41,179 nt of DNA from an uncultured bacterium (GCA_963977445.1 CAXBPH010000025.1:1-41179), one strand, 5' to 3'; positions 7,084-26,629 are shown, counted from the first letter of the stretch. The notes: generated from the letters alone by a model not told the origin. Numbers and translations: made by a program.

Positions 7084-8169
7084 TTAGTCTGCGTCCAGCT
7101 CTTCGAAAACGGCTTTCATCAACAAGGGCAACACCACGGTAGCGTCCGCGTAGACCTCGGCATACTTTCCACCGTCTGCGGGGGGAACAAATTTGCCCCA
7201 ACTGACGCCTTCGGAATAGGTACACCCCGAAAGGCCACCCCAGTGGACGGGTTCCGGACAGATGCGGACACCATATTGAAATCGCGGGTTGGGCAATTCA
7301 ATACCGAGCCGTGCAGAGGTAATGTCGAAATAGGGTCCCACTTGCTGGGCCCAATTCCGGGGCACGCCACCGCCAATGGTGATAATGCCCAACTTTTCCG
7401 ACTTTCCGATCAGACGGGCATATTCCTGCATATCCAGAAAGGGATTGAAGGCCGGCACGGCCGTAAAGACTTCATCAGGCGTAAGGGGGCGCCCTTTTTC
7501 CGCCTGCATAGCCGCGACGGAGGCCGCCATGACGTGGGTGGAGAAATCCAGGCCCATTTCACTGTCGGTGAAGGCGGGAATGAAGACAGGCACCCGTTTG
7601 CACCAGGCGCTTCGTAAAATACCGGGCCCCTGATCCAATTGGTCGAGGCGCTCGCCGACGGCGCGGCAAAAACGGGAGGAACACCACACCCCATCATCGG
7701 GAACGGTGTTGGCGAGCACATCGGCCACCAACTCCGCTACGTCATTGAGATTGGATTCCATTTCCAGGGTGTCGTAGATCCGGTTGTAGCCCTTGGCGAA
7801 GAGCTCCGAATCGTCAGCAGCGGGGTCGACCGCATAATGCGTCAGGCCGATACTTTCGGTGACGCCATGGGCCACCAGGGCACCGGTGGCGACCACCGCA
7901 TCCACAAGGCCGCTATCTATCATCTGACAGATAATCTGACCCTGCTTGGCAACGGTCATGGCCCCGGACAGGGTAAGCACCGTCGTGCATCCCTGATCCC
8001 GGGCCATACTCAGAGTGACATCCAGCGCCTTGCCGAGCTGACGCCCGCCAAAGGCTGTACGCCCCATAGCGCGAACTAGCCCGGAGAAAGAGTCCAATTC
8101 GTTGAGATTAAGACTCTTAAGCGGCACGAGCCCGTCGGCCCGCCCATCGTGCATTTCGCGATCTGACAT
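7084..8169 (-). CDS. Deoxyhypusine synthase-like protein (bacterial DHS/homospermidine synthase-like)
   Basis: 'LTLSGAMT', 'VATGAL', 'GYNRIYD', 'PAFTDSEMG', 'IGGGVPRN', 'GGLSGCTYSEGVSWGK' (catalytic Lys retained) and 'EVYADAT'. Confidence 0.92.
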   Translation of the reverse strand: MSDREMHDGRADGLVPLKSLNLNELDSFSGLVRAMGRTAFGGRQLGKALDVTLSMARDQGCTTVLTLSGAMTVAKQGQIICQMIDSGLVDAVVATGALVAHGVTESIGLTHYAVDPAADDSELFAKGYNRIYDTLEMESNLNDVAELVADVLANTVPDDGVWCSSRFCRAVGERLDQLDQGPGILRSAWCKRVPVFIPAFTDSEMGLDFSTHVMAASVAAMQAEKGRPLTPDEVFTAVPAFNPFLDMQEYARLIGKSEKLGIITIGGGVPRNWAQQVGPYFDITSARLGIELPNPRFQYGVRICPEPVHWGGLSGCTYSEGVSWGKFVPPADGGKYAEVYADATVVLPLLMKAVFEELDAD

Positions 8170-8189
8170 ACTACAAACTCCTCCGTCCG

Positions 8190-8591
8190 CTATATGACGG
8201 CAAGTTCCGCCACCGCAGGCACCTGAAGAAAATCGTTTTCTTCCTCGGCAAAGCGGGGCATGGTGCGAATGAAGACATCACCAAGGTCCACCTCTTCACG
8301 AATACACTCCAAGACCTTAAGGGGGTCGGTGGAGCCACACGTAAAGACGTCCATGGCAATGAGGCCGTCATCCGCGTAGGTATGGGCAGAGCAGTGGCTC
8401 TCGTCCAAGAGTACTACGGCGGTAAATCCGGGGGGGGAGTTGTGTCCAAAGTGATAACGCACTTGCGAGATCACCGTCGCTCCGGCACGCTCTGCGCCTC
8501 GGGCCATAGCCCGCAGCACCAGCTTATCATCCAGACATACTTCGCGGGACACATTGTGACAGTCGATTAGTAGATGTTTGCCTCTGTGCAA
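8190..8591 (-). CDS. speD: Pyruvoyl-dependent S-adenosylmethionine decarboxylase family proenzyme (SpeD/SpeH-like); start revised to TTG at 8591 (133 aa)
   Basis: 'GKHLLID', 'GFTAVVLLDESHCSAHTY' (E-S self-cleavage site) and 'DVFTCG'. GAGGAGG at 8607-8601 lies 9 nt upstream of the TTG. Confidence 0.85.
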   Translation of the reverse strand: MHRGKHLLIDCHNVSREVCLDDKLVLRAMARGAERAGATVISQVRYHFGHNSPPGFTAVVLLDESHCSAHTYADDGLIAMDVFTCGSTDPLKVLECIREEVDLGDVFIRTMPRFAEEENDFLQVPAVAELAVI

Positions 8592-8704
8592 TTCATAAAA
8601 CCTCCTCTGAGTATACAAAGCAGTACACACCGCCTTACGCTCGATCTCCTTGCTCAAGGGAGGCTTGGGGACGGTAACCAAACCAAATTTTTTCGTGGAG
8701 ACAA

Positions 8705-8948: not shown

Positions 8949-9049
8949 GGATTCTGCAGATAAAAAAATATCGGGAGTGCGGATACCCCCTGCCCTCCGT
9001 CTATGGCGACGTAACGGGGCGAGGTCGAGTGGCGAGATCGACGGGCTGT

Positions 9050-11974
9050 CTACTGCGCTTCGGCGGGTGCGGGTTCGTTTGCGATGAGATCGCGCAACGA
9101 CTGGATGCCCATGGAGAGATTCTGTTCCTTAATGTGGTAGTTGTGACAAATGAGACAACTATCGCCGGCCTTGCCCTGAACGTGGCAACGCGCGCAATCA
9201 CCCTTGGCTACCGGCTCGAAATTACTGACGAAGGCATGTCCGCTGCTGCCGTGATTGGCATTGGAGAAGTTTACACCCAACTCGAGCCCTTCCGTGCTTG
9301 CCTTGAAACTGTCCAGGTACGCCATAGCCGGGGCTGCAGCGGACACTTCGGATTCGGGTGACGCTTCTTCCACCGCCGGGCTTTCTTCGGCTTCGCGCTC
9401 TGTTTCAGGAGCGACAGCGCCGTCGCCAGCCGTCGTCACTGCCTCTTCCTCGGCAGAAGCCGCCTTGGCCACCGTCATACGGGCTTGCACTGCCGGAACC
9501 CAAGGGGCACGGTGGCACTCTGCACAGTTCATCAACTTCAAGTGGGGTGTGTGATTAAACTTGGTGAAGTCCCGAATGGGTTGTTCGCTCTTCCAGTTTA
9601 CCTTTACGACGGGGTCACCGGCGGCATTTTTCTCTGCATCGATACTGTGGCACTTCATACAGGCACCAATGGCCGAGCCGGTCGCACGACCACTGAGTTC
9701 GTCAAATACCATCGCCGCAGCCGGACTCTTGGCATACAGGGAGGCTGAAAAATCGAGCCAGGCGGTTATGAAGGGATCCGCGTGCTTAATGGGTCGATAG
9801 TACATGGAGCGAGGCTCACGGAGGGCCCAGGTCTCTCCTGAGACCGTCGCGGTGCCTTCCAGCCATTTTTTAAAGTCTCTGAAATCGCCAAACCATGCGA
9901 CGAAAGCTTCACCAACTTCGTGTATGGCCGAATCCGGGTCTACCTCAGCAGGGACGGCTTTGTCCGGTGCGGCATCTGCCGCCCCGTCGGAATTCTCTTC
10001 CGGGGTATCCTTCGCCGCGGCCTCATCATCCCCTTCTGCGGGTTCCTCTGCACTTTCTGTAGCGGATGCCGCCGAAGCGCCCACCATTCCGGTAATCAAG
10101 CCCTTCCACTCTTTATTTTTCACGCCCTTGCCGGACGATACGAGAATCCAGTCTTCTCCTTCGACCTTAAACTGCGTGTCGAACCATTCGCGGAAGGCCT
10201 CGTAATCGCTGAAGAGCGACAAAACCTTCTCGTAGGCTCCGGCACCGTCTTCCGCTGCGGCATCACGCAATGCGCGGTAGGGGGCGACAGTATCAATGGC
10301 CGACAACCAGCCCGCCGGGTCGAGTCTAAATTCACTCTCCCGCACGTGCCACCCTGACATTTCGATAATGTCTTTCCGGGAAATGTCTTCCACAACTTTC
10401 TCGACGGTGCTCCCCAATTCGGGATAGCCAAACAAGGCGTCCAGTTCGCCTGATGAGATGGGTCCACCTTTGACCCGCTCAAGCTGTTCCTGAATGACCT
10501 GGCGCAGTCCCCCCTGGTCCTCGTTCATGGCGTCACCCTGCAGAAACTTCAGGCCTTCAAAGAGACGGCCGACAATTTCCGGGTCTTCGTCATAGGCGAT
10601 TCCGGAAAGGTCACCTTCGAACTCTTGCACCATGGCAAAATCTTCGGTGAACTGGGCCTGGCTCTTCGGGTCCTGGGCATTATAGCCCGCGAGGAGCAAC
10701 ATCATGATGGGTGAAATCTTCTTACTGGCCGTCCGGGGAATGGCCGACAACTCGAGCTCGTCTTCCAGAATCTCATAGACATCGGACTCAACGGACGGAA
10801 AACCGAAAACAGGGATCCATTCATCTCGGGCGGAAACAATGCTACCGTTATGACACGCCGAGCACATCTCCTCGAAGGCTTTCAGGCGGGTCGTGAAGGT
10901 CTCCCCCGCAATCTCGTGACAGGAGGTGCAATCGGCGGGTGCATGGGCGCTGAAGCCGTCTTTTTGAAAATAGTTGGTTTCGTGACGCTCGTGATCGAAA
11001 ACGATCCGCGTCCGTCGGCGATAAGGGTAGTCATACCCCGCCTTGGAGGCGAGAGTCGCGAACTCGGGGTGCCCTTGGTTGATACTCTTGAATTGCTTCA
11101 CATGGCATACCTGACAATTCTCGTTTTCCATGCGTTTTATGTCGAAAAAGGCACCGTTGTGCTCATGGTGACAGGTCGCACAGGCGAGTTGGCTACTGTC
11201 GCCCAATTTAACACCCGGTGTAAATGACGCCAACATCAATGACAGGGGTTTCGACGCGCTGAATGGATCCGCCTGGGCCTCTGCGGTGTGGGTCGCCATT
11301 ACATCAGCACTGAGCGCGTGGGGCGAAAGACCACTGTTACCCACGTCGTCCTGGTGGCAAACCAGACACTGAGCGCTCTGTGTAACGGACGAATTGCCCT
11401 TGACCGCGGCACTCAGCAGACCTTCGAGGCCTCCTTCTACACTGGTGTGGCAAATATGACAACTTTCACCCTCAATTCCCGTACTCGCGCTGGAATCCAG
11501 CTTGCCATGGGTCATTTCTTCCAGGGACGCCATCGATGCGCCCTGGTGACTCACAGTGAGGGGGCCTGGGGACAGGAATTGGGTACGCCAGGCACCACCA
11601 AGGGCCGTCAGCGCGCCGCCAACGAGGATTAGGCAGATGACGATACTTACCCGGCCACGAAGATTGCGGAGACTGCGCTGTGGCGAACAGTGTACTTTCT
11701 TACAACATTCACCCACGCCATCGCGTACGGCCGGACCAAAAGCGGGCTCTTCCAGTGCGGGACTGTCGCAGGGGCCGCCGTACTGTTCAGGACGGGTGCA
11801 GACCCAGCGATCATTCAGTTTCGCGGGAACGCACTCATAATGGACCGCGCATTTACCCCGGCGGGAAGGCCCATGGGGGCAGGGCTTGCCTTCGGCCGAT
11901 AGACCACATACCCAGTTTTCATTGGGTCGGTTATACGGGCGCTTGTAAATTTCCTTATCGTGCGAATCAGCCAT
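9050..11974 (-). CDS. Membrane-anchored decaheme cytochrome c (cytochrome c3-like modules) with a Cys-rich N-terminus; 974 aa
   Basis: Ten CxxCH motifs (CHICH, CLVCH, CATCH, CQVCH, CTSCH, CSACH, CMKCH, CAECH, CARCH, CLICH), c3-type FDHERH/FNHTPH distal-His motifs and one TM helix. The ATG at 11974 overlaps the upstream TAA (TAATG). Confidence 0.9.
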   Translation of the reverse strand: MADSHDKEIYKRPYNRPNENWVCGLSAEGKPCPHGPSRRGKCAVHYECVPAKLNDRWVCTRPEQYGGPCDSPALEEPAFGPAVRDGVGECCKKVHCSPQRSLRNLRGRVSIVICLILVGGALTALGGAWRTQFLSPGPLTVSHQGASMASLEEMTHGKLDSSASTGIEGESCHICHTSVEGGLEGLLSAAVKGNSSVTQSAQCLVCHQDDVGNSGLSPHALSADVMATHTAEAQADPFSASKPLSLMLASFTPGVKLGDSSQLACATCHHEHNGAFFDIKRMENENCQVCHVKQFKSINQGHPEFATLASKAGYDYPYRRRTRIVFDHERHETNYFQKDGFSAHAPADCTSCHEIAGETFTTRLKAFEEMCSACHNGSIVSARDEWIPVFGFPSVESDVYEILEDELELSAIPRTASKKISPIMMLLLAGYNAQDPKSQAQFTEDFAMVQEFEGDLSGIAYDEDPEIVGRLFEGLKFLQGDAMNEDQGGLRQVIQEQLERVKGGPISSGELDALFGYPELGSTVEKVVEDISRKDIIEMSGWHVRESEFRLDPAGWLSAIDTVAPYRALRDAAAEDGAGAYEKVLSLFSDYEAFREWFDTQFKVEGEDWILVSSGKGVKNKEWKGLITGMVGASAASATESAEEPAEGDDEAAAKDTPEENSDGAADAAPDKAVPAEVDPDSAIHEVGEAFVAWFGDFRDFKKWLEGTATVSGETWALREPRSMYYRPIKHADPFITAWLDFSASLYAKSPAAAMVFDELSGRATGSAIGACMKCHSIDAEKNAAGDPVVKVNWKSEQPIRDFTKFNHTPHLKLMNCAECHRAPWVPAVQARMTVAKAASAEEEAVTTAGDGAVAPETEREAEESPAVEEASPESEVSAAAPAMAYLDSFKASTEGLELGVNFSNANHGSSGHAFVSNFEPVAKGDCARCHVQGKAGDSCLICHNYHIKEQNLSMGIQSLRDLIANEPAPAEAQ

Positions 11975-12798
11975 TAGAGCACTCTTCCGGAAAATGCATG
12001 GGTCATCCACACGTGAAAGATTATCAAGACGAACAACCCACTGGTAAGCGGAATATGAAGAAAGAGCCAGGTCTTCAGCGCGAACTGCAGGGCATATTGA
12101 TAATCCAGCCCGTTCTTTTTCCGCACATAGACTGCGATTTTCTCCAGGATCTTCTTTTCGTCATCATTGAGATAGCGATATTGGTCTTCGATCTCAACAA
12201 GTATCCGATTCAGCGGCGGTGCCACTTCGAAGATATGATGAAACATATAGCGCGGGCCGTCGAAGAAACTTCGAAGACGTTCTGTGTAAAACGTCGATAT
12301 TGTGGACGACTGGGTCTCCACTATCGATTCTTCCGCCAGGCGGTCGACCGCTTCCCTGATCATCTTACGATGCTCTGGAAGACGTTCGAAGACGACCTCT
12401 TCCCCATTGGCCGTAAGTCGTCGGGGGAACACACGGGTCATCACCAGTCCCACGACGCCGCTTATGAGAACGGCAAAGTAGAACAACGCCAGGAGCTGGT
12501 CGAAAAATCCCGTTGGTACTTTCAGCCCAACGTGAAAAAGATAGGGCACTATGGTAAAGGCACCGCCATAAATGTGCACCTGCAACCAGAGGCGAGAGGG
12601 ACCCAAGGGGGGGACGGGGAATTTCTTACGCACGTTAAAGAGCGCAAGAAAGGTCATCACGGCGAGAAAAATCCACCCCGAGAGCATATGGGGATTGCGC
12701 AGTGTAACGCGAAATCCTTCAATGAAAATGAGGAAAATTATCGTGACTGCGCCAAGTATGACCAGTGCGTTCAGTCGTCTCCGGGTATAGTATCTCAC
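11974..12798 (-). CDS. Integral membrane protein, ferric-reductase/cytochrome b-like (putative di-heme)
   Basis: About 5 TM helices. Two H-x13-H pairs sit in TM helices (WLQVH-IYGGAFTIVPYLF-H; WLFLH-IPLTSGLFVLIIF-H). GTGA overlap with the upstream gene. Confidence 0.75.
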   Translation of the reverse strand: MRYYTRRRLNALVILGAVTIIFLIFIEGFRVTLRNPHMLSGWIFLAVMTFLALFNVRKKFPVPPLGPSRLWLQVHIYGGAFTIVPYLFHVGLKVPTGFFDQLLALFYFAVLISGVVGLVMTRVFPRRLTANGEEVVFERLPEHRKMIREAVDRLAEESIVETQSSTISTFYTERLRSFFDGPRYMFHHIFEVAPPLNRILVEIEDQYRYLNDDEKKILEKIAVYVRKKNGLDYQYALQFALKTWLFLHIPLTSGLFVLIIFHVWMTHAFSGRVL

Positions 12799-14603
12799 CG
12801 TTTAATAAACCTGGCTAGTGAATCCACGTCTTGCATGTTAACGCGCTGAAGGGCATCGTGGGGACAGGCCCGCACGCAGGCAGGACCACCCGTCTGGTCA
12901 ACGCATAGATCACACTTGGTTGCTTTGTAAATGGGTGAACCAGCGGACTCTCCCGAGCTGGCTATCCGAAAGGCCCCGCGACTGTTACGGACAGTAATCA
13001 TCCGTATAGAATCGTAGGGACAATTGCTATAACAGGTTGCACACCCGATACAGGCGTCTTCATTGATAACGACCTGACCTTCAAGGCTTTCCCGTGAAAT
13101 GGCTCCGGTAGGACAGCCAATCATACAAACGGGATCGACGCAATGCATGCAGGCGTTTGCCACCATTACGTTGCCGTGGACGGGCCCGTGGCGCACAAAT
13201 CGCGGATTGCCGTCATGGGCAGACGCGCAACCACGCACGCAGTCATCACATCGCGTGCACCGGTCAAGATTGATCAGCATGGTCTTCGTGCCGTTCAAGA
13301 ATCGGTTTTCGGCGAAGAACTCAAACAGCTCGGCGCCGACATCGTCGCGAAGGGTATTGGCCGTATCGGTCTTACCCGCCTTAATATCTTTACTTCGATA
13401 TCGCGGAAAATTCGGTTGCTCTTTCAAGAGCGTGGGCAAGATATATTTTTCCACCAAGTGGGTGGGAATTGTCAGGATATGGGCATAGCCAATGGCCCGC
13501 AGGCTATGTTGAAAAGGGATAGGGCTGTTGGGGTGCTGCCAGTTATACAGGGCCTCTTTCAGCCCAAAAACCTGGCCACCGCCAAGGTAATTTAATGTCT
13601 GGTGTCCGTGACCATAGCGTTTACTCTCTCGTGCGAAACCCGCGCGAACAACGTGTATGCCATTCGGGTAATCCCCCTCCTCCGCAATCATCTCTTCCTG
13701 ATCAATTACTCGGGTCTTCTCGTCCTGGGACAAACCAATATATTCGGAGGACCATTCGTCATATTTGCCGTAGGTGCTGAATTTTACCTGCGACAACACC
13801 TCTTCCGGCAAGGACTTAAAGAGCGATATGGATTCCAGCGTTCCTTTGAGCGAACGCTTGCGATACATCTCGTCAATATGATGTTCGATACCTTCGTCGG
13901 CTTCCATAAGATCACGGAGGCCTTGCCAACGCAATTCAAGCACACGCGTCGGCTCTGCTGCGACGATAGATATTTCGCGGGGCATGCGGTAGATGGCCCC
14001 AATCTCGCCGAAGAATGATCCGGGCATCATGGGGGCTGTCTGGTACTTATTCGGGTCCAGAATATCGGCCAGTTGTTGCGGGCTAACCCCCGTACCCTTT
14101 TCCTCATCTTTTCGGGACTTGACGTTGGCCGTACGATATTCAGTGGCACGGGGCATGAGCATGTCACGCACGCGGGAAATGAGGGATCCCACAAAACCGA
14201 TGCTGCGCCGCTCACGGTGTCCGAGGAGACCCGAAGGTAATTCTGGTTGAATAACGGCGCGGAGCTCCCCTTCAAGAATAAAGAAGGCGGAGTTTCCGTA
14301 GTCATCTTTGCGAATTACAAAATCACCCGCGTCATAGGAACGAATTCGGGCGTCGTTCATCAGAATGCCGTAGATGGATACAGGCACGCCAAAGGAAACG
14401 AACTGGGGTTTCTTCGCCGCTTCAAGGGTATCGCAGATTGACCGAAAGGGATTCATCTGGAGCACGTCCAGCAGATCCATTTCCGTCATTTTCCCATAGG
14501 GCTTTGCCCAACGGGTTAACCGCTTCTCCCCTTCATCAGCGGTTGCGGATGGTGCACCCAGTGCACCATCCGCGCGCTCTATTTCTTGCTGAACAATAGC
14601 CAA
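12795..14603 (-). CDS. Cyclic-nucleotide-binding domain + 4Fe-4S ferredoxin (DmsB/NrfC-like) fusion protein
   Basis: Two cNMP domains ('GSFFGEIGAIYRMPREISIVA' canonical; second degenerate). The C-terminus carries CTRCDDCVRGC, CMHCVDPVCMIGCP, CIGCATCYSNCP and CDLC...ACVRACP. Confidence 0.9.
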   Translation of the reverse strand: MAIVQQEIERADGALGAPSATADEGEKRLTRWAKPYGKMTEMDLLDVLQMNPFRSICDTLEAAKKPQFVSFGVPVSIYGILMNDARIRSYDAGDFVIRKDDYGNSAFFILEGELRAVIQPELPSGLLGHRERRSIGFVGSLISRVRDMLMPRATEYRTANVKSRKDEEKGTGVSPQQLADILDPNKYQTAPMMPGSFFGEIGAIYRMPREISIVAAEPTRVLELRWQGLRDLMEADEGIEHHIDEMYRKRSLKGTLESISLFKSLPEEVLSQVKFSTYGKYDEWSSEYIGLSQDEKTRVIDQEEMIAEEGDYPNGIHVVRAGFARESKRYGHGHQTLNYLGGGQVFGLKEALYNWQHPNSPIPFQHSLRAIGYAHILTIPTHLVEKYILPTLLKEQPNFPRYRSKDIKAGKTDTANTLRDDVGAELFEFFAENRFLNGTKTMLINLDRCTRCDDCVRGCASAHDGNPRFVRHGPVHGNVMVANACMHCVDPVCMIGCPTGAISRESLEGQVVINEDACIGCATCYSNCPYDSIRMITVRNSRGAFRIASSGESAGSPIYKATKCDLCVDQTGGPACVRACPHDALQRVNMQDVDSLARFIKR

Positions 14604-14619
14604 CGTGATCTTTCAGGGT

Positions 14620-15657
14620 TTATTCGTAAACTTCGCCATGATAAGAAGTAGGCACTTTGGAAGCGGCTGCACTGAGTGCGGTGCCGAATTTACCCTTATC
14701 AGATTCTATGGTCTTGGCTACCTTGCGAATGCCATCGGCCGCGCCGACATATTCGGCTTTGTTACCCGTGGCCACTTTGACTTTACCGCCATCCAAGGGC
14801 ACCTGGGAAAGGACGCTGTCCATACCACCAAGGCCTTTCAGGGCGTCGTAGGCATTCTGCGCGCGTTCGCCCATGGCTGTAAGATAGGTGCCTTCTGTCG
14901 TAGCGGAAGCCAGGCCACGAAGCGCGAACTCCAGGTCCAGGGTCTTGCCGACTACGTAGAAGATTTGCTTCTCCTCTGCGGTGGAGTCGTTATTGGTGCC
15001 CTGCTCGGCGCGGGCTTTGGGATCGTCGTTCAGGAAATTATGGCGTACTTCGCCGTGGCTCCATGCTACGAGCTCAAAATCACTACCGGCGGGATGCTGG
15101 CCCTTGTTGACCAGGTCTTCCTTGGGTACTGTGTGACACTGGAAGCAATTCATGGCCAAGGTGTAGATATCGTCCGTGAGACGCATACCGAGGCTCTCGG
15201 CTTTCGCCAGGCGGGCAGCCCGGTCGGGCATCCCTTCCGTGTCCTGGTGCACGTCGAGCCAATCCACAGCACCGCCATGGCACCGTTGGCAGGAAACGCC
15301 CATAACGGTCTTGGGACGTCCACCGGCTTCTTTGGCAGTCTGGGTGTAGTGGCACTGTACGCATTCGTCGTTCCGGCGAATACTACCCGAGTCACCCAGA
15401 CGCTCAAGAATGGCCTTGGCTTCATCGCGCAGGTGCAATTCGTCGAAGGTCTTCTTGTGTGTCGACTGTTCCCAAGCGAGAACCGCGTTTTCGTGGCACT
15501 GCTCGCACTTTCCTTTTTCGTCTTCAATAATTTTGTGAGGCTCATAGGTCAGAACATCAGCGGCATAGGCCGTTGTTCCATGAAGCGCAACGCTCCCAAG
15601 GCAGACCATTGCACTACCCGTTGCAAGTTGTCGAAAATGCTTCCAATTAACTATCAT
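14620..15657 (-). CDS. Periplasmic tetraheme cytochrome c (c554-like)
   Basis: Four CxxCH motifs (CEQCH, CVQCH, CQRCH, CFQCH); signal peptide (AYA-A); GGGAG Shine-Dalgarno before the ATG at 15657. Confidence 0.88.
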   Translation of the reverse strand: MIVNWKHFRQLATGSAMVCLGSVALHGTTAYAADVLTYEPHKIIEDEKGKCEQCHENAVLAWEQSTHKKTFDELHLRDEAKAILERLGDSGSIRRNDECVQCHYTQTAKEAGGRPKTVMGVSCQRCHGGAVDWLDVHQDTEGMPDRAARLAKAESLGMRLTDDIYTLAMNCFQCHTVPKEDLVNKGQHPAGSDFELVAWSHGEVRHNFLNDDPKARAEQGTNNDSTAEEKQIFYVVGKTLDLEFALRGLASATTEGTYLTAMGERAQNAYDALKGLGGMDSVLSQVPLDGGKVKVATGNKAEYVGAADGIRKVAKTIESDKGKFGTALSAAASKVPTSYHGEVYE

Positions 15658-15703
15658 GATTTCACTCCCGTTAGAACGACACACTGTTCAAAAATACGCG
15701 ACA

Positions 15704-16999
15704 TTACGCGTCCAACTCGATCGCTGACTTTGGTGTGGCAATACAGGGTAGGCAATAGCCCTCCTGCAGGCCAGGAAACGCCGGTTGAACGTCGATGTAC
15801 GCAACCTCACCACTCTTCAGGGCCGTGTGACAACACCCACACTTTCCCTGACCACACGCATACTTAATCTTCTTTTCTTTAAATCGGCTTGTCTTGGCAG
15901 CGGCCCGTATACTTTTTTCGCCCTGCCAATTAATCGTTTTTCCTGAGGCGCCATAGGAGATGGTAAGTGCCTGACCCGTAGCAACTGCCGGTGCGGGTGC
16001 GGCACTCTCTCCGAAGGCTTCCCAGTTAATCTTATCTTTCGGTACGCCCCAAGCCTGCAGATCCCGTTCCAGATTTTTCATCATAATTTCGGGACCACAG
16101 GTGTAGTAGGCGTAATTATTCCCGGGCATAACTGATTTTAACATATCAATGTCTACCCGGCCGGATTTGTAAATAATGCCACTGTCGGCCACCGTGCCAT
16201 CTTCGATTCCCTTGGGCATTTCACCGCTGAAACAGAGGTAGACATGGGCATTCTTCAAATGACTCGCGGCATACTCGAAGTTGGGCACCATGACGAGGTC
16301 ATCTGGATTCCGCACGCCGAAAAATATCCAAACTTCCCGGCTGCTCTTCCGATCAATGAGGCTATTGCACATGGACAAAATAGGCGTTACGCCTACACCA
16401 CCGGCCATGAGTGCTACCGGGCTTTCGTGCGACGGATCGAGGAAGAAATCCCCGCTTGGCGCCTGCACATCAATCAGATCACCTTCCTGAATATGGTCGT
16501 GGAGGAAGTTCGACACAAGGCCCGGCGGCATTTCAGGGTTCTTGGGCGGCGGCGGAACTTTCCGCACGCTGATCCGGTAGTAACGCTGATTGGGGCTGTC
16601 CGATAAAGAATAGCACCGGGTCTCTTCAAGGGTCTCCCCCGGATTTTCTGGATCGGGAAGATCCAAGCGAAACATGAGAAATTGCCCGGGGCTGAAGGAG
16701 GGCAGTTTGCGACGATCATGGGGATAGAAGTAAAAGGAACAAATGTCGCCCGCTTTATTTTCTACAATTTTCTTGCGGACTTCAAACTTACGCCATCCAG
16801 ACCAGGAAAGTTTATTGGAGACGGTTCGCTCCAACTGCGCCTCGGCCGTCTGAATACGGATTTGCCACTCTTTGTAATCCTGTCGACGTTTGAGTTGCTG
16901 CGCCCGTGAACGCTGAAGCGTACCATAGACCAAAACCGGCACCTGAAGCACAAGCGTAGCTACAACGATAAGGCCTAGAGCCAGTGCGACGAGTTCCAC
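15704..16999 (-). CDS. N-terminally membrane-anchored FAD/NAD(P)H-binding oxidoreductase with a C-terminal [2Fe-2S] ferredoxin (FNR family, PaaE/Hcr-like)
   Basis: 'RCYSLS', 'GLVSNFLH', 'AGGVGVTPILSM', 'YTCGPEIMM', 'WEAFG' and 'CGQGKCGCC...CLPC'; AGGAGG Shine-Dalgarno with GTG start. Confidence 0.9.
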   Translation of the reverse strand: MELVALALGLIVVATLVLQVPVLVYGTLQRSRAQQLKRRQDYKEWQIRIQTAEAQLERTVSNKLSWSGWRKFEVRKKIVENKAGDICSFYFYPHDRRKLPSFSPGQFLMFRLDLPDPENPGETLEETRCYSLSDSPNQRYYRISVRKVPPPPKNPEMPPGLVSNFLHDHIQEGDLIDVQAPSGDFFLDPSHESPVALMAGGVGVTPILSMCNSLIDRKSSREVWIFFGVRNPDDLVMVPNFEYAASHLKNAHVYLCFSGEMPKGIEDGTVADSGIIYKSGRVDIDMLKSVMPGNNYAYYTCGPEIMMKNLERDLQAWGVPKDKINWEAFGESAAPAPAVATGQALTISYGASGKTINWQGEKSIRAAAKTSRFKEKKIKYACGQGKCGCCHTALKSGEVAYIDVQPAFPGLQEGYCLPCIATPKSAIELDA

Positions 17000-17044
17000 G
17001 CCAAACCTCCTACATTCCTGGTTTTCCGCTGCGCATCAGCGAGA

Positions 17045-18910
17045 CTAGAATTGGACAACAAACTCGGTGCGAATACCTTTTTTCTCGTCCAGCGCTTCTC
17101 GCTGCACGTAGTAGGCATCAACACTCCAGACGTAGCGGGTCTTAAAAGCCTGCTGATAGCGGGCCATTATACCGAGACGTCCGCGATCGGAACCGTCAAA
17201 GTCGGTACGACCGCCCAATTCGAGAATGACTTGCTTACGCTGCTCATCAAAGAATTTCTGATAGCCAATCGCACCACCGGCACTGTCGTGATCCGTCGTG
17301 TTCTCGATAGGCGAACCAACAAAACCAATTCCCGGTGACGCGAAAAGAATACCAACCCGGCCCAATGGACCGCCAGTGGAAGGATCACGGGCTACCGATT
17401 GATAATGGTCATTGGCAACGAACAAGGTCGAGTAGACCAGATCGTAGCCATAGGGAGGTGTCCAGGATGCTTCCGCAAGGAACACCTGGCCAGAATCGGA
17501 GTGGATGGTATCGGCGCTGCTCGTGCGCTCGGAAATGTTGAAACGAAACGCCGTGTTGATGTGGCCAATTCTCTGAACGAAACTCAAGCCAACGTTGACC
17601 TGGTCACCACCTTCTCTCAGGATGGCGCCGTTGTTCAGATAGCGGGTGGTTACGTCGTCGTTGATGTACGCGAGATCAAGGTCTACCGTGGTCTTCGGAA
17701 AGTCGATGCTGTTGAACAGGGCAAAGAGGTGGGCACTATCACGCTTACGATTGTTCACACCCACACCGCGATGCAATTCGTCCCAACCCCAGACAAAGGT
17801 ACTCCGGATATTGGCAGCTGCACCGATAAGTAGATTGTTGCGCGTGATACCCAAGGCATCCACGTTATCGCTGATCATAATTCCTTCTTGGAAGAAGAAC
17901 GGCTGGCGCCCTACTGAGAAACCGAAATCGACGACGCCCGTGTCATTTTTATCCAATCCTGGAAATAATTCGCCAAAGTCACCTTCAAAGAAAAGCTGAT
18001 CAACGTCTGCATCTCCACGGAGATACCAGTCTTCTTTGTTGACGATATTGGGTGTTTGCCAACGGTAGCCGTTGAAGTTACCGTTGTGGTCGAAGGGACG
18101 GAGACCAAGCACAAGACGCTCGGTTGGCGTCAACGCCAGATTGAAAAAGAGATCCAGTCGGGTGACCAGCTCTTCAACCTTTGCTTCACCACGTTGGATA
18201 GGCGGACCAGCAACATCGGTAATCGGAGGCAAGCGGTTGCCGGTCGCTTCATACTGCCATGCCGTGCGCAAGGTACCAAAGACGAAGAGAGATGGCTGCC
18301 AAACGGCACCGGTGGGGATCTTAAACCCCTCCTGCAAGTTGCCATGATTCAAAAAGTCATCACCAAAAATCCGAAGGGTCCGAGGACGCTTCGGAAAGGG
18401 ACGCACCTGGCTCTCGAGTATTTCATCGGGAAAAGATAGGCGCAGCAGCTCACGATTCCGAGCGGTTGCGTCCACCGGGCCAAGTCCTTCGAGGCCCGAT
18501 TCCAACTCCGCTTTGAGCTCTTCGGGAAGCTCAACGCTGGAAAAGGATGCACTATCGTAGAAGGTGGGGTAGCGAAGTACGGCGTTGAGGCCATTGATCA
18601 TGCGGTATTTGACCACACGCTCAAGCTCGCCACCACCCTCGATGGAAAGAAACTCTTCACGCAAATCCGGACTGAGAAACTGCCAGACGCGCCCGGCCGG
18701 CGACTCGGCATTTTCCGCGCCCGCCTTGAGCTTCATCAACAGGGCTTCGTAGTCCTGGATATCCTCGACGGCGAACAGCGCATAGGCTTCTGTCTGCAAC
18801 GGAATTGGCTTTTGTGAAAGCTTGCTCTCCGATGCCGCGTGGCTGTAAGGGCAAAAGGCTATTGCCGCGCCCATCGCAAGCATAAGTATCTGTATACGAC
18901 ACATGGTCAT
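17045..18910 (-). CDS. Putative outer-membrane beta-barrel protein with an N-terminal helical domain
   Basis: Signal peptide (SHA-A), alternating amphipathic beta-strands in the C-terminal two thirds, and a terminal 'GIRTEFVVQF' BAM-type signature; GAGGGAG Shine-Dalgarno. Confidence 0.75.
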   Translation of the reverse strand: MTMCRIQILMLAMGAAIAFCPYSHAASESKLSQKPIPLQTEAYALFAVEDIQDYEALLMKLKAGAENAESPAGRVWQFLSPDLREEFLSIEGGGELERVVKYRMINGLNAVLRYPTFYDSASFSSVELPEELKAELESGLEGLGPVDATARNRELLRLSFPDEILESQVRPFPKRPRTLRIFGDDFLNHGNLQEGFKIPTGAVWQPSLFVFGTLRTAWQYEATGNRLPPITDVAGPPIQRGEAKVEELVTRLDLFFNLALTPTERLVLGLRPFDHNGNFNGYRWQTPNIVNKEDWYLRGDADVDQLFFEGDFGELFPGLDKNDTGVVDFGFSVGRQPFFFQEGIMISDNVDALGITRNNLLIGAAANIRSTFVWGWDELHRGVGVNNRKRDSAHLFALFNSIDFPKTTVDLDLAYINDDVTTRYLNNGAILREGGDQVNVGLSFVQRIGHINTAFRFNISERTSSADTIHSDSGQVFLAEASWTPPYGYDLVYSTLFVANDHYQSVARDPSTGGPLGRVGILFASPGIGFVGSPIENTTDHDSAGGAIGYQKFFDEQRKQVILELGGRTDFDGSDRGRLGIMARYQQAFKTRYVWSVDAYYVQREALDEKKGIRTEFVVQF

Positions 18911-18997
18911 TGACTCCCTCCGCTGCATTCTGCTGCCACGCGACACCGTTTCCTGGGTTGGGAATAGTTCGCGACCAACAACACAACAGGCTTGGTG

Positions 18998-20971
18998 TTA
19001 CTCCACAACGATCTCAAAGTCCTGCTCCGCAATCAGTGAATGACCACCTGTTACGCCGAACAAATCCTTAAGTTCCTCTTCCCGATGTTCCTCAACCAGA
19101 GTATCCACGTGCTCCCGGGTGAGCCGGTTACCCTCTGCATCTAACACGTCGCCTACGCCAAAACGCACTCCCAATGCGATTTGGTGCGCACTCATGCCGT
19201 AGTCAAAGCCTACATCCTTTATCTCGTCTACAAGATTGATAGGTACCATGCCGGCAATGAGTTTAGCTTTGACGGTATAGATGCCCGGACCCGTCAACTT
19301 CTTTTTACCAATCTTATACTTGGCCCGGCGCGTGTCCAGGGGCGTGATGTTTTTCTTGTGAATCCGCGCGCCAGCAGGGCGACCCGTCAAGGTGGCCGAA
19401 AAACGGGAAGGACGAATGAAGGGCAGTGGGCTCGGCGAGAAATTGATGGCCAAGACCTGTTCGCGGTCGGTCCCGCGATTGTTGCGGGTGATAAAACTCG
19501 ACTGAAGGGTGAAGAGTTGCTGGTCCAGGGAGAGCTCGCGGTTATGCACGAACAGGGAGTGGAGGTCACGAACGTCGAAATTCGGATCCAGGTCACCGGA
19601 GACAAAAACCGTCTCCCCTGCTTCATTCAAAACTTCAACCTGCAGGAACACGACACGTTCCGCGATAAAGCCCGTGGGCACACTGTGTCCGTCGGTCAGA
19701 TTCTTCACGTCGATTTCGAATTCAATGCCTTTTTTGGTGGACGCTTTCGTTATCTCGTATTCGCCGATGCCGTAGCCGGCTTGCAATACGGCCAGGCGCT
19801 CTTGCTGATACTCTTCCAGCAAGGCCAGCTGGTCGGCGATTAAGTCGCGGGCTTCGTAGCGCTCGTCGATGTTTTCCCAACGGGCGGGAAAGGCCGTGCC
19901 CTTACCGGCGTCCTGACGGGCGGGCTCGTCTTCTTCTTCAAATTGATCGGTGCCCCAGCCTGCCTGATAGTCGAAGGTCAACCATTCGCGAATCGTTGCA
20001 AATTCTGCAGCGTCGTCATTGTGGGGGTAAATACCGGGGTGAATAACGGAATGGTCGGGACCAGCGAAACGGTGGTTTGTTTTCTTTCGCTCTTCACCAA
20101 CCCACTTGGCACCAATCTTAGCAATCTGCTTCTTGTCGTAGTTGGTTTCTTTGTCGCCAGAGAAAACACCAGGCGTGTTACCCATGTGACAGTCACTACA
20201 GGTCACCCCGTTGCGGGACGCGGGACTTTGCTTGTACTCACTGAAGGCTTCCTCAAGGCGAAAACCGTTCAGTAGATTCACGTCGTGGCAGACACCGCAG
20301 AATGAAGATTCCTGTAACTGGTAGAAAGGCAGGGTCTCCCCGTGCACTTTCCCTTCGCCAAATTTGTTTGTAATCTCAGCACCGAAGGTCTCGGGGAACT
20401 CAGGGTTTCCCTTCGGCCCATAAATAGGTTGGTCCAACTCACCATCCTGAAGGGCGATACGTCCGCTGATTTTTCCGTATGTCTTGTTGATCCGGTGGCA
20501 AACCACGCAAGTCACGCCTTCACGAGAGGTGGGACTACGGTCAATATTGCTCATGAAAATATCTTCGGAAAGATTCATGCCCACGGGGGTATGACAACGG
20601 ATACAAAAGTCGCCATTGGTCCCGTTGGTAAGCTTCAGTATCTTCGCATGCATCGCGTTAAATACAGGGCTCATTTGTGCATACGCGTGGGGAGAAACAG
20701 ACCACTCGCGATAGTGGTCCGGGTGGCACTGCTTGCACTCGCTGGCGGAAGGATAGTAAGGCTTACCTTCTCCGTCTTTATAGATGGCTACGTGTACGTT
20801 TTCATCCGCGACGGCCTCATCCGCAACTACCTCCTCCGCAGGTGCCTCAGCGGCATCGTCCGCTGCGACGGCAATACCGCCCAGCCAAAATCCGCCCAAT
20901 ACTGTAAGTGCGGCGATGGCTTTGGTACCCGGCAACCACGTGTTGAACTGAAACAAGAAGTGCGTTTTCAT
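18998..20971 (-). CDS. Exported pentaheme cytochrome c with a C-terminal beta-sandwich region
   Basis: Five CxxCH motifs (CKQCH, CIRCH, CVVCH, CGVCH, CSDCH), 'NHRFAG', 'NLTDGHSVPTG'; signal peptide (AVA-A). Confidence 0.88.
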   Translation of the reverse strand: MKTHFLFQFNTWLPGTKAIAALTVLGGFWLGGIAVAADDAAEAPAEEVVADEAVADENVHVAIYKDGEGKPYYPSASECKQCHPDHYREWSVSPHAYAQMSPVFNAMHAKILKLTNGTNGDFCIRCHTPVGMNLSEDIFMSNIDRSPTSREGVTCVVCHRINKTYGKISGRIALQDGELDQPIYGPKGNPEFPETFGAEITNKFGEGKVHGETLPFYQLQESSFCGVCHDVNLLNGFRLEEAFSEYKQSPASRNGVTCSDCHMGNTPGVFSGDKETNYDKKQIAKIGAKWVGEERKKTNHRFAGPDHSVIHPGIYPHNDDAAEFATIREWLTFDYQAGWGTDQFEEEDEPARQDAGKGTAFPARWENIDERYEARDLIADQLALLEEYQQERLAVLQAGYGIGEYEITKASTKKGIEFEIDVKNLTDGHSVPTGFIAERVVFLQVEVLNEAGETVFVSGDLDPNFDVRDLHSLFVHNRELSLDQQLFTLQSSFITRNNRGTDREQVLAINFSPSPLPFIRPSRFSATLTGRPAGARIHKKNITPLDTRRAKYKIGKKKLTGPGIYTVKAKLIAGMVPINLVDEIKDVGFDYGMSAHQIALGVRFGVGDVLDAEGNRLTREHVDTLVEEHREEELKDLFGVTGGHSLIAEQDFEIVVE

Positions 20972-21290
20972 AACTGTCTCCCGAAACTTTCCGAGCACCC
21001 TGGGAACGCTCTTTTTTGGTTCTTTAGAACGCTATACGAACGACCCGACGTTTGTTTTGCGGGCCTTAAACCAGGCCACGTTACGCTCAACCCGCCCACC
21101 GACGACGTGATTTTGCATAGTCCGATTTTTCGAACTGTCCAGCGCATTTACCTGAACTGTTGCAGTCGAAAGCTCGGTCACGCCCTCAGAAAAACTTTTA
21201 TTCCTGACACTTCAGAAATTCGCGTTCCATGAGTTCCACACACACCAGGAACCTGGATCACATCAGGAAACATCCCCTGGTCAGTCTGCA

Positions 21291-21668: not shown

Positions 21669-22355
21669 TTATTGACTGGATTGTGCAAGCCAATAAAAAA
21701 CCGCCCCCACCCCTGCCCCAACCACGAGGAGACTGAGGGCAAACACCAACGCCACATTCCCACCCCGATGGCTGAGTAGCTCTTCCTCGGGCAACGCCGT
21801 ATCATCCGCTTCCTTACCAAAATCACCGTGACAGCGGGCGCATCGCTTACTGAAAATGTCGTTATTCTCCCCGCAATTTGGACATACCACGACCGTATCG
21901 TTCCCGTGGCTGCTCATTTCCTGCATGGTGCCGGCCACCATCGTGGAGGCCATGGTTCCCATCGCCATACCCAGCCGTTCGAGCGCCTCGGTAGAGGATT
22001 TGGTGGGCTTAATCTCTGATACACGCGTCCAAGCGTCTATCGCCTTGTCCGTATTACCCGCCCCTTCGTATACCTTCGCAAGCTGTTCCAATAAGGAATA
22101 CTCCTGCGGGTGATCCTTAAGCGCTTTCAGCAATTCGGTCTCCGCCTCGGCATATTTCCCCAGGCGGTAGTAGGTTGCTGCAAGGTAGCGCAATACAGGT
22201 ACCTGATCGGGCCATACGTCGCGAAGCAACAAGAGATGCTCCAAAGCGGAACGATAGTCCCACGCGGTGTAGAGCTTCTTTGCCAGGCGCCAGCGCTGCT
22301 TGTGATCGTCGGGATGCGTATCAACATACGCACGAATTTCTTCTACATCCGCCAT
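21669..22355 (-). CDS. TPR-repeat protein with a zinc ribbon and C-terminal TM anchor
   Basis: TPR-like helices ('LAATYYRLGKYAEAE', 'LAKVYEGAGNTDKAI'), CPNC...CARC, and a C-terminal hydrophobic helix. Confidence 0.8.
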   Translation of the reverse strand: MADVEEIRAYVDTHPDDHKQRWRLAKKLYTAWDYRSALEHLLLLRDVWPDQVPVLRYLAATYYRLGKYAEAETELLKALKDHPQEYSLLEQLAKVYEGAGNTDKAIDAWTRVSEIKPTKSSTEALERLGMAMGTMASTMVAGTMQEMSSHGNDTVVVCPNCGENNDIFSKRCARCHGDFGKEADDTALPEEELLSHRGGNVALVFALSLLVVGAGVGAVFYWLAQSSQ

Positions 22356-22481
22356 AGTGTGTCCAAACGGTGCCTTTGTCGCCCCCAATGTCAATGACTC
22401 GGGGATCTTCCAATAGATGCCAATATCAGCCGGGACACCCCTCCGCAGTTAGCGTCATGGGGTCCAAACGTGCTCAGCGTT

Positions 22482-24522: not shown

Positions 24523-24532
24523 GAAAGCACTC

Positions 24533-26110: not shown

Positions 26111-26618
26111 CTTTTTTTTCCCCTTTGGTGCTTTCGGGATTCTCTGTCTTCGGAATGAGGCGCATGTCGCATATCGGGCAGCGCCCCGGGGCTTCCTGTA
26201 CAACTTCTGGATGCATGGGACAGGTATACAACGCACCAGGTACGGACGCGCCCTCCTTTGTCGCTACCGGGGGACTTTCCATGGACGGCTCCGTCCCACT
26301 TCCCACCGATGTAGCGTCATGCTTCATCGTCGGCATATCGCCCATCGTACTGTGGTCCATTCCTTTCATCGTCGGCATATCGCCCATCGTACTGTGGTCC
26401 ATTCCTTTCATCGCGGTGGATGATTTTTCCGATTCACCAAGGGGATGATCCGGTTTGGGGAGGGAATAGTCCGTAAGGACGGAGTCACGTCGGGGTTCCG
26501 ACATACTACTGGACTCGGTGCTTGCGGGGTGACCCGATGAGAATTCGACCGGCTCCATCGTCAGACAGCCCGAGAGTACCGGGAGACTGGCTACTAAGAG
26601 TATCGTTGTTCTTAACAT
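26103..26618 (-). CDS. Heavy-metal-binding (HMBD) lipoprotein with Met/His-rich repeats
   Basis: Lipobox LSGC, 'YTCPMHPEV...GRCPICDMRL' and duplicated MKGMDHSTMGDMPT. Confidence 0.85.
   Translation of the reverse strand: MLRTTILLVASLPVLSGCLTMEPVEFSSGHPASTESSSMSEPRRDSVLTDYSLPKPDHPLGESEKSSTAMKGMDHSTMGDMPTMKGMDHSTMGDMPTMKHDATSVGSGTEPSMESPPVATKEGASVPGALYTCPMHPEVVQEAPGRCPICDMRLIPKTENPESTKGEKKDE
26323..26413. repeat. Exact 42-bp tandem duplication (2 copies + 7 bp) inside the HMBD gene
   Basis: TTCATCGTCGGCATATCGCCCATCGTACTGTGGTCCATTCCT at 26323-26364 and 26365-26406. Confidence 0.95.
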
Positions 26619-26629
26619 CTAGATCTCTC

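Follow-up and report, generated by a model that had tools for sequence, protein, structure and literature searches.

What do seven adjoining genes that encode a flavoprotein, iron-sulfur clusters, membrane proteins, 19 c-type hemes and an outer-membrane barrel do for the uncultured bacterium that carries them, and in which direction would their products move electrons? The genes, here called ptdA to ptdG, are located at 9050-20998 on the minus strand of a DNA stretch of 41,179 nucleotides (nt) from a member of the phylum Hydrogenedentota (GCA_963977445.1 CAXBPH010000025.1:1-41179; G+C content ~55%), the whole of which is referred to as the window. They are a Hydrogenedentota copy of a known, functionally uncharacterised cluster, described previously as PCC4 and as ptdABCDEFG. 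The reading weighed below, which is given roughly even chances, is that they encode an outward electron chain, fed by NAD(P)H and gated by a signal, with the periplasmic pentaheme cytochrome PtdA under the PtdB channel as its end point.

The cluster consists of seven long co-oriented open reading frames (ORFs), with the transcription order ptdA-B-C-D-E-F-G:

ptdA, 18998-20998, minus strand: secreted pentaheme cytochrome of 666 amino acids (aa), with five CxxCH motifs and a match to Pfam Cytochrome_C554 (E 6e-10).
ptdB, 17045-18946, minus strand: outer-membrane beta-barrel of 633 aa, as judged from its signal peptide, AlphaFold2 (AF2) model, Foldseek matches and C-terminus VVQF; it has no Cys-rich motifs.
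ptdC, 15704-16999, minus strand: anchored FNR-type FAD/NAD(P)H reductase of 431 aa with a plant-type [2Fe-2S] C-terminus, from its Pfam domains.
ptdD, 14620-15684, minus strand: periplasmic tetraheme, c554-like cytochrome of 354 aa, with four CxxCH motifs and a match to Pfam Cytochrome_C554 (E 2.8e-14).
ptdE, 12795-14603, minus strand: cytoplasmic protein of 602 aa with cyclic-nucleotide-binding (Pfam cNMP_binding) and [4Fe-4S] ferredoxin (Fer4_11/Fer4_7) domains.
ptdF, 11974-12798, minus strand: inner-membrane protein of 274 aa with five transmembrane (TM) helices, a predicted di-heme b protein from its motifs and AF2 model (pLDDT 89).
ptdG, 9050-11974 (longest ORF to 12010), minus strand: inner-membrane-anchored decaheme cytochrome of 986 aa in the longest ORF, with ten CxxCH motifs and a TM helix at residues 121-139.

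This inventory bears out what the first-pass annotation of the window had read from the same DNA, namely seven co-oriented genes with five, four and ten CxxCH motifs (PtdA, PtdD and PtdG, respectively, in the ORF and motif listing of the minus strand), an anchored FNR-type flavoprotein (PtdC, with FAD_binding_6, NAD_binding_1 and Fer2 domains and an N-terminal hydrophobic helix), a protein with four [4Fe-4S] motif sets (PtdE, with 16 Cys in four motifs), a membrane protein with paired His residues (PtdF, with about five TM helices and the pairs His75/His89 and His248/His262) and a barrel ending in Phe (PtdB, ending in VVQF). Its expectation that the protein encoded at 17-19 kb would model as a beta-barrel also held, the AF2 model having 18 strands and the Foldseek matches being porins. 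An extra CGCCH in PtdC falls within the 2Fe-2S motif of that protein. The TAATG and GTGA overlaps are present in the sequence exactly as the annotation had them; the former, at 11974, joins the ptdF stop to an ATG that is the likely start of ptdG, while the latter (4 nt) joins the ptdE stop to the GTG of ptdF. Using the longest ORFs, the junctions measure -37, -4, 16, 19, 45 and 51 nt, and the ATG at 20971, which is codon 10 in the longest frame, is the likely start of ptdA. A consensus scan located a terminator-like hairpin with a T-run at 8973..8990 on the minus strand, ~60 nt past the ptdG stop, which is weak evidence for an operon end, as such sites are common in the region (28 found, 16 +/- 4 expected). 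The promoter scan gave no excess of sites (9 found versus 8.8 expected from shuffles).

The composition was named PCC4 in 2017 (He et al., Front Microbiol, PMC5566968) and ptdABCDEFG in a later preprint (bioRxiv 10.1101/2023.11.21.568154). In the accessible text of the former, PCC4 comprises a porin, periplasmic cytochromes with four, five and ten hemes, and a five-helix inner-membrane protein with the signature SGxxG on TM4 and Wx3Hx13H on TM3 and TM5, while its subgroup II adds a pfam13247 Fe-S gene 5' of the inner-membrane-protein gene and a redox (flavin oxidoreductase) gene 5' of the tetraheme gene (PMC5566968). The accessible text of the preprint describes PtdB as a porin, PtdC as an FAD/NAD(P)-binding oxidoreductase, PtdD as a periplasmic tetraheme cytochrome, PtdE as a cyclic-nucleotide-binding and 4Fe-4S protein, PtdF as a ferric-reductase-like membrane protein and PtdG as a decaheme cytochrome; it names marine Alpha- and Gammaproteobacteria, Nitrospirales and Planctomycetes as hosts of the operon, and reports that ptdAB are strongly transcribed in an oxygen-deficient zone and that the function of the operon "remains completely unknown" (10.1101/2023.11.21.568154).

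In gene order and domain content the window agrees with these descriptions of ptdABCDEFG and of PCC4 subgroup II. The porin gene adjoins the pentaheme gene and is accompanied by the tetraheme and decaheme genes, and PtdF carries W71x3H75x13H89 on TM3, S113GVVG117 on TM4 and W244x3H248x13H262 on TM5, which are invariant or at least 90% conserved in 21 orthologues, and has five TM helices in its AF2 model. Fer4_11, which is PF13247, is found in PtdE (E 7.7e-10), the gene of which lies 5' of ptdF, and the FAD, NAD and Fer2 domains are found in PtdC. Seven-gene orthologous clusters with 36-59% identity per protein are encoded in metagenome-assembled genomes (MAGs) of Gammaproteobacteria, Planctomycetota and Nitrospinota, and a Nitrospirales MAG encodes ptdA-B-C up to the end of its contig; the comparison was thus with clusters from taxa that the two papers name. 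The same seven proteins, in the same order and with the same PtdF motifs, are thus common to the window and the published cluster. The differences are that the host phylum Hydrogenedentota lies outside the taxa named in the accessible text of both papers, that the PtdB of the window has an extra N-terminal helical domain of ~120 aa, and that its PtdE has four [4Fe-4S] motif sets instead of the 'two' in the published description.

The first-pass annotation had implied that the composition was new, which these two publications contradict. Its related proviso, a match to an already characterised complex, applies in part: the cluster was described before, and in their accessible text neither paper characterises it experimentally. 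A further 'porin-cytochrome' paper, on Methylobacter (PMC13322032), was considered and set aside, as the cluster there is of the MtrAB type. Relative to the accessible text of the two papers, the barrel size, the two-module organisation, the swapped flavoprotein, the rule that governs the Cys-rich domain of PtdG and the helical domain of PtdB are new.

The gene set is more than a chance assembly, as the heme, Fe-S and His positions are 96-100% conserved in alignments of 24-73 rows and the gene order recurs widely. When GTDB genomes, one per species, were searched with an alignment of the 633-aa PtdB, 476 pattern matches were obtained, 398 of which encode a PtdB relative, and the best 80 of these 398 loci were kept. 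They carry at least eight phylum-level labels and include Hydrogenedentota, Acidobacteriota, Planctomycetota, Verrucomicrobiota/Kiritimatiellae, Omnitrophota, Nitrospinota, Nitrospirales, Gammaproteobacteria and SAR324, among others. In a set of 41 related genomes, seven encode a full-length PtdB homologue (G000, G003, G004, G005, G007, where it is split over two contigs, G008 and G011), while in the remainder the match is confined to PtdB residues ~55-180. All seven genes, together with an upstream TPR-repeat gene, are syntenic in the four relatives compared (4/4; identities 34-87%). The ptdA gene is located directly 5' of ptdB in 79 of the 80 loci, the exception being L045, the sequence of which starts only 50 nt upstream of ptdB. 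Across phyla, PtdA shares 48-59% identity with the protein of the window, as against 24-34% for PtdG. A census was restricted to the 45 loci in which ptdB has flanks of at least 7 kb on its upstream and at least 9 kb on its downstream side. With genes assigned by blastp at E <= 1e-5, a threshold that diverged genes may escape, it gave the following architectures:

ABCDEFG: 18 of the 45 loci.
ABDEFG with a Pyr-type flavoprotein gene: 10 of the 45 loci.
ABDEF with a Pyr-type flavoprotein gene: 5 of the 45 loci.
AB: 3 of the 45 loci.
ABDG: 2 of the 45 loci.
Seven other partial patterns: one locus each of the 45.

All five of the 'AB-only' genomes that were examined encode a PtdF homologue elsewhere (E 1e-72 to 1e-84), flanked by ptdE, and in four of the five ptdG lies beside this remote ptdE-F pair (exception, L096). 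PtdAB as a stand-alone pair is therefore rejected and a two-module system is indicated, the AB and EF(G) modules co-occurring in genomes even when they are unlinked. The co-occurrence of the genes in other genomes, which the first-pass annotation had made a condition of its reading, is hence evident in the relatives, in many phyla and in the unlinked modules. In a quick tree of 73 PtdA rows (LG+G4, with SH-aLRT support alone), Hydrogenedentota group with Omnitrophota and one Nitrospirales (support 98), the Acidobacteriota-type sequences form a second group (support 96), and Planctomycetota, Verrucomicrobiota, Gammaproteobacteria, Nitrospinota and SAR324 are mixed in a third (support 96). The interleaving of phyla in this third group suggests lateral transfer. 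In one Kiritimatiellae MAG, two ORFs of 157 and 303 aa stand in place of an intact ptdA (L020, 8026-9370, plus strand), and one of the two ptdF copies of the same MAG contains an in-frame TGA (L100, G044:C1); these could reflect decay or assembly error.

At the cytoplasmic end, PtdC combines an FNR-like reductase with a plant-type ferredoxin. Its Pfam domains are joined by an NCBIfam match to the Hmp-like reductase module (E 1.6e-63), and the residues R128-x-Y130-S131, G201-x-G203-x-T205-P206, C301-G-P303 and C382/C387/C390/C419 are 96-100% conserved in 25 rows. We take RxYS to be the FAD motif, GGxGxxP and CGP to be the NAD(P)H motifs and Cx4Cx2Cx~29C to be the [2Fe-2S] motif. A hydrophobic helix followed by a basic stretch is present at the N-terminus of all 21 orthologs (21/21). 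PtdE encodes three cNMP_binding stretches and, at residues ~440-600, a four-cluster ferredoxin domain of the HybA/DmsB/HydN type, the 16 Cys of which (449-459, 485-497, 518-528 and 564-580) are 97-100% conserved in 33 rows. Its best NCBIfam matches are partial and all far below the cut-offs, the cytoplasmic AegA N-terminus and HydN among them, and its N-terminus contains neither a signal nor a twin-arginine sequence. In four loci from SAR324, Verrucomicrobiota and Planctomycetota, a 7TMR-DISM sensor fused to an adenylate/guanylate cyclase adjoins the ptd cluster (L059, 5132-7276, plus strand; L042, L047 and L048). This cyclase is a possible source of the nucleotide sensed by PtdE, and such a neighbour fits the cNMP domains of the latter.

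In place of PtdC, 16 loci, nearly all of them from Acidobacteriota, contain 3' of ptdG a gene for a protein of ~766 aa (Pyr) with a Pyr_redox_2 domain, two FHA domains and a C-terminal Fer2 domain; none of the 16 encodes PtdC. One example ends an Acidobacteriota-type cluster in which the tetraheme cytochrome is replaced by a protein with eight CxxCH motifs:

Pyr flavoprotein gene of L041, 18375-20675, plus strand.

In 13 loci a gene for a further FHA-domain protein separates ptdG from the Pyr gene, and genes for Ser/Thr kinases often occur near Pyr-type clusters. Read from these sequences, the FHA domains suggest a phospho-threonine-dependent control of this electron-input flavoprotein. Two unrelated, [2Fe-2S]-ended pyridine-nucleotide flavoproteins, PtdC and Pyr, thus occupy one system; of the indirect arguments for NAD(P)H as cytoplasmic partner, this is the strongest.

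The crossing of the inner membrane would fall to PtdF. In its AF2 model five TM helices are accompanied by a cytoplasmic helical insert of ~115 aa between TM4 and TM5, and the His pairs are situated on helices 3 and 5, one pair near each membrane face. This is the arrangement that two stacked b-hemes would require. The His arrangement of the ferric reductase domain (PF01794), with pairs 13 residues apart on the third and fifth helices, is likewise found in PtdF. Beyond the membrane, the non-motif His residues 76, 146, 197 and 215 of PtdD are invariant in 36 rows, enough for four bis-His hemes, and PtdG has ten conserved non-motif His residues (24 rows), enough for ten. PtdG further contains an N-terminal cytoplasmic domain of ~110 aa (window 11650-11974, residues 13-120) with nine Cys before the TM helix, built of two similar half-repeats (W-x-C-G ... 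G-x-P-C ... G-x-C) and conserved from Hydrogenedentota to Gammaproteobacteria. This Cys-rich domain, with 8-12 Cys, is present in all 17 ten-heme PtdG proteins (17/17) from loci with ptdC and ptdE and absent (0-1 Cys) in the 17 from loci without ptdC; three further rows (L039, L067 and L087), mostly over-extended ORFs, are ambiguous. The absence of an export signal in PtdE, the anchor and basic stretch of PtdC and the manner in which the PtdG Cys-rich domain tracks PtdC and PtdE together support the placement of the input proteins on the cytoplasmic side.

The other end of the chain is formed by PtdA, in which a signal-like helix (residues 27-45) precedes a heme domain (~76-310) and a conserved C-terminal domain (~410-600). 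Five non-motif His residues (104, 219, 309, 438 and 485) are invariant, all ten Cys lie inside CxxCH motifs, and the ORF contains no in-frame TGA. A profile of 26 PtdA sequences matches 5ze8, the pentaheme c552 of T. tepidum (E 2.7e-15; a second stretch covers the GHxxPTG loop), as well as MccA (0.0028) and MccSep (0.035). The last of these (ExtKL of Geobacter sulfurreducens) is a periplasmic polysulfide reductase with a five-heme cap, an immunoglobulin (Ig)-like stem, a His/Cys-ligated heme 2 and a selenocysteine (Sec) on a DGUP loop (PMC13510729), and the 'PHC' pentaheme family unites it with c552 (EMBO Rep 2025, PMC11976967). The five N-terminal CxxCH motifs, the GHxxP[TD]G loop, which is common to PtdA and MccSep, and the 5ze8 profile match are features that PtdA has in common with this family. 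Its score against NCBIfam ExtKL is 37.5 bits (cut-off 250), and a search of the Atlas with PtdA returned only its own multiheme clusters. A C-terminal beta-sandwich in PtdA is reported in the preprint, which places the protein in the NrfA COG (10.1101/2023.11.21.568154).

That PtdA is a true periplasmic multiheme enzyme, which uses an open or unusually ligated heme to reduce a defined oxyanion or chalcogen species of small size (for instance nitrite, hydroxylamine, NO or polysulfide) delivered through PtdB as a dedicated substrate channel, in the way that ExtI may serve MccSep, is an unlikely alternative but the one that survives best. The electron supply would be as in the outward chain, with PtdA as a catalyst in place of an outer-sphere reductase. 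The cross-phylum identity of PtdA, far above that of PtdG, is in its favour, as are the profile matches to c552 and, weakly, to MccA and MccSep, the assignment to the NrfA COG in the preprint (10.1101/2023.11.21.568154), and a PtdB barrel sized like those of substrate-specific channels. In a weak alignment with MccSep (domain E 0.71, not significant alone), Leu248 of PtdA, flanked by the invariant Arg247 and Glu249, occupies the position of the distal Cys239, the GHxxPTG loop aligns with the Sec325 loop, and Phe444 takes the Sec position. PtdA, however, has neither the Sec nor the heme-ligating Cys of MccSep and its chemistry must differ; polysulfide reduction of the MccSep type is excluded, because PtdA has no Cys outside its CxxCH motifs. 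The five invariant non-motif His residues would, moreover, allow all five hemes to be bis-His ligated. The statement of the first-pass annotation that the cluster lacks a recognisable terminal catalytic subunit may nonetheless be wrong, given a PtdA that is 48-59% identical across phyla and distantly related to the family of MccSep (PMC13510729).

What surrounds PtdA at the outer membrane is indicated by the AF2 model of PtdB (34-row alignment, mean pLDDT 81), in which a confidently modelled helical domain (residues 55-175) is followed by a barrel of 18 long strands (219-632). The best Foldseek matches of this model are 18-strand porins and channels, namely MOMP (5ldt, E 3e-13), the chitoporin ChiP, OprD/Occ and AlgE, with no MtrB among the 50 matches listed, and PtdB matches no family in Pfam (E <= 0.01, MtrB_PioB included) or NCBIfam. 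These results speak against a sheath of the MtrB/PioB type, and the modelled size of PtdB is that of OprD or AlgE rather than that of MtrB. When the alignment is mapped onto the model, the outer loops L1, L2, L4, L5, L6, L8 and L9 are poorly conserved (0.18-0.34), while the conserved parts are the periplasmic turns T1 (0.65) and T2 (0.57), which carry an EGDFGE-FP motif, the 40 residues that precede strand 1 (0.56) and loop L7 with its 41 residues (0.54), consistent with a channel whose periplasmic face and internal loop are both conserved. The N-terminal helical domain (window 18400-18780, residues ~55-180) is missing in most other phyla, where matches begin at ~160-190; the Kiritimatiellae and Omnitrophota proteins match from residue ~37. 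In order-level relatives this domain matches ORFs of ~291-320, ~495 and ~560 aa, one of which, a 496-aa protein that reads as MraY-like from its sequence (L008, 880-2370, minus strand), contains it as an insertion. It appears as a lineage-specific periplasmic module common to a barrel and a cell-wall enzyme.

The size of the barrel bears on a second alternative, in which PtdA, wholly or in part, would reach through PtdB to pass electrons to Fe(III)/Mn(IV) minerals or to other cells, as MtrCAB-like systems do. Such extracellular transfer was the view of the first-pass annotation and, in their accessible text, of both papers, the preprint raising a possible link to iron reduction in oxygen-deficient zones (10.1101/2023.11.21.568154), and is here considered quite improbable. 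As in MtrAB, MtoAB and Pcc, a porin gene adjoins a multiheme gene, the c-heme chain is of periplasm-spanning length, as in MtrCAB, MtoAB and PioAB, and all of the hemes may be bis-His ligated, as in the Mtr proteins. MtrB, however, has 26 strands. The barrels of the MtrCAB/MtoAB/PioAB group have ~26 strands, unlike the 18-strand, OprD/AlgE/MOMP-like PtdB with its lack of an MtrB_PioB match, and the Ptd cluster encodes no surface or extracellular cytochrome, takes its input from something other than a CymA/NapC-type quinol dehydrogenase and has poorly conserved outer loops on its barrel. A solute channel with a pentaheme cytochrome beneath it is therefore favoured over an Mtr-like sheath on account of the 18 strands and the absence of an MtrB_PioB match. 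Of the candidate trans-envelope conduit of the first-pass annotation, the parts list and the idea of a chain from NAD(P)H to the barrel stand, while a wire of the Mtr kind is doubtful. A precedent for a porin beside a periplasmic pentaheme enzyme is offered by ExtI and MccSep, as the Geobacter ext cluster likewise has a porin gene (ExtI) beside a periplasmic pentaheme cytochrome with an Ig-like C-terminal domain (Sci Adv 2026, PMC13510729). The electron supply of the ext cluster is not an NAD(P)H flavoprotein chain, unlike that proposed for Ptd.

From the genes, motifs, topology signals, barrel fold, conservation and co-occurrence set out above, a route for the electrons, its direction, the docking of PtdA to PtdB and a role may be proposed. 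The inner-membrane-anchored PtdC would accept hydride from NAD(P)H on its FAD and pass single electrons to its own [2Fe-2S] cluster, from where they would travel along the four [4Fe-4S] clusters of the cytoplasmic PtdE, the three cNMP-binding domains of which may gate or tune the flow. The inner membrane would be crossed via two stacked b-hemes of PtdF, held by His75/His248 and His89/His262, after which the electrons would pass along PtdG (ten hemes), PtdD (four) and PtdA (five). The MtrCAB chain comprises ~19 hemes over about 185 Angstrom; by analogy, the 19 hemes of the Ptd proteins should be enough to bridge the periplasm. PtdA is predicted to lie at the periplasmic opening of PtdB, the 18-strand channel of which is too narrow to enclose a cytochrome. 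There it would reduce a small soluble or ionic acceptor that passes through PtdB, such as a metal, as free ion or chelate, or a small compound of N or S. The AB end module is supported by the adjacency of ptdA and ptdB in 79 of the 80 loci, the remote ptdE-F(-G) genes in all five 'AB-only' genomes, the 18 strands of the barrel, and the conserved periplasmic turns, extension and L7 loop of PtdB.

Chemiosmotic reasoning points to the outward direction, which is favoured because departing electrons would be assisted by the membrane potential and would fall through a large redox span. The quinone pool would be bypassed and energy would be spent, not conserved, for which reason an assimilatory, protective or redox-valve role fits better than a respiratory one. 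The least probable account is the inward uptake put forward by He et al. in 2017, with electrons moving from an extracellular donor to the quinone pool, in which Fe(II)/Mn(II) would be oxidised at PtdA/PtdB and PtdD, PtdG and PtdF would carry the electrons to quinone or NAD(P)+. In its favour, He et al. recorded the cluster in four iron-oxidising Zetaproteobacteria and in a Hyphomicrobium of Fe/Mn filters, and the cultivable carriers that they name include Oceanospirillum beijerinckii DSM 7166, Hyphomicrobium and Mariprofundus (PMC5566968); Nitrospinota and a lithotroph MAG of the Nitrospirales also carry it. Against it, electrons from Fe(II)-type donors would have to climb both a redox and an electrical gradient to reach NAD(P)+, with no proton-coupled module present. 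Its cytoplasmic partners, moreover, are flavoproteins of the NAD(P)H type and a four-cluster ferredoxin of low potential, and most carriers are heterotroph-type MAGs (Hydrogenedentota, Acidobacteriota, Verrucomicrobiota and Phycisphaerae).

Several observations weigh against the outward, NAD(P)H-fed chain. PtdF matches nothing in Pfam (E <= 0.01, Ferric_reduct included) or NCBIfam, and Foldseek against the PDB returned nothing at E <= 0.001. A wide VIA-align comparison gave generic helical bundles (best Z 9.9, sensor domains, with a root-mean-square deviation of >8 Angstrom; CybB 5oc0, Z 8.0), and the Atlas models of the Ferric_reduct, DUF4405 and B561 clusters are weak leads (TM-score 0.33-0.49). 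Heme binding by PtdF is thus read from its motifs, there being no Pfam or convincing structural match. The ABDG and ABDFG clusters, which are mostly from Phycisphaerae/Planctomycetota, encode no PtdC or PtdE within 10 kb, so that the NAD(P)H input is either not universal or encoded elsewhere in these genomes. The five invariant non-motif His residues of PtdA suffice for five bis-His hemes, so that no open catalytic heme is needed and PtdA may act simply as an outer-sphere reductase or as a relay. Cyc2, a cytochrome fused to a porin, probably functions with a small barrel. By analogy with this iron oxidase, which the small PtdB barrel recalls and which would suit inward uptake, 18 strands alone would be compatible with electron transfer at the pore. 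The inward model of He et al. and the occurrence of the cluster in iron-oxidising Zetaproteobacteria (PMC5566968) have also to be counted here, and the searchable literature, with subscription journals and preprint supplements outside the search, yielded no experiment on any Ptd or PCC4 protein; the sequencing runs listed for this organism comprised no RNA run.

Known systems with a logic like that of the proposed outward chain are the eukaryotic NOX/FRE enzymes and bacterial MsrQ with the flavin reductase Fre, in which electrons pass from NAD(P)H to a flavin, then to two stacked bis-His b-hemes on TM3 and TM5 and on to an acceptor at the outer face. Ptd would share this outward, non-respiratory logic. 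It differs in that its parts are separate proteins, with a [2Fe-2S] and four [4Fe-4S] clusters between the flavin and the b-hemes, and in that PtdF has five TM helices instead of six and no Pfam Ferric_reduct match. A wider proposal, tentative and somewhat doubtful as a whole, is that Ptd is the bacterial multi-subunit counterpart of NOX/FRE: second-messenger-gated, driven directly by NAD(P)H, bypassing quinones and leading through the inner membrane and across the entire periplasm to a pentaheme reductase beneath its own outer-membrane channel. In many bacteria of marine waters and sediments it would serve to acquire metal (iron) reductively or as a regulated valve for excess reductant, with at least one exchange of the input module and an unchanged end module.

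The genes upstream of ptdA in the window are the following:

TPR-repeat gene, 21669..22394, minus strand: matches Pfam TPR families and lies ~670 nt upstream of ptdA.
Multicopper oxidase gene, 23257-24588, minus strand.
OEP outer-membrane factor gene, 24533-26236, minus strand.
HMBD heavy-metal-binding-domain protein gene, 26103-26618, minus strand.
DUF2231 membrane protein gene, 26630-27385, minus strand.

The TPR gene is upstream of the cluster in the loci of all four relatives (4/4) and in the four flank-bearing Hydrogenedentota loci among the best 80, and is a conserved neighbour in this phylum alone. The genes at 23257-27385 (minus strand) resemble a set for copper or heavy-metal handling, and in the loci of other phyla no link between such a set and the ptd genes was found. 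Directly 3' of ptdG, at 7084-8681 on the minus strand, S-adenosylmethionine decarboxylase and deoxyhypusine-synthase-like genes are located, and they occupy the same place in the closest relative (L014/L015). They are probably a polyamine (homospermidine-type) pair unrelated to ptd.

The window adds details to a known but uncharacterised system rather than constituting a discovery, and its value lies in a correct annotation and in testable details, namely the 18-strand channel, the two modules, the swapped flavoprotein and the Cys-rich domain of PtdG. The carriers of ptd genes include nitrite oxidisers and abundant heterotrophs of marine waters and sediments. If the proposed reading is true, a chain that leads from NAD(P)H to the outer membrane without quinones would give bacteria a novel means of spending reducing power beyond the cytoplasm, and would bear on marine iron, nitrogen or sulfur cycling.

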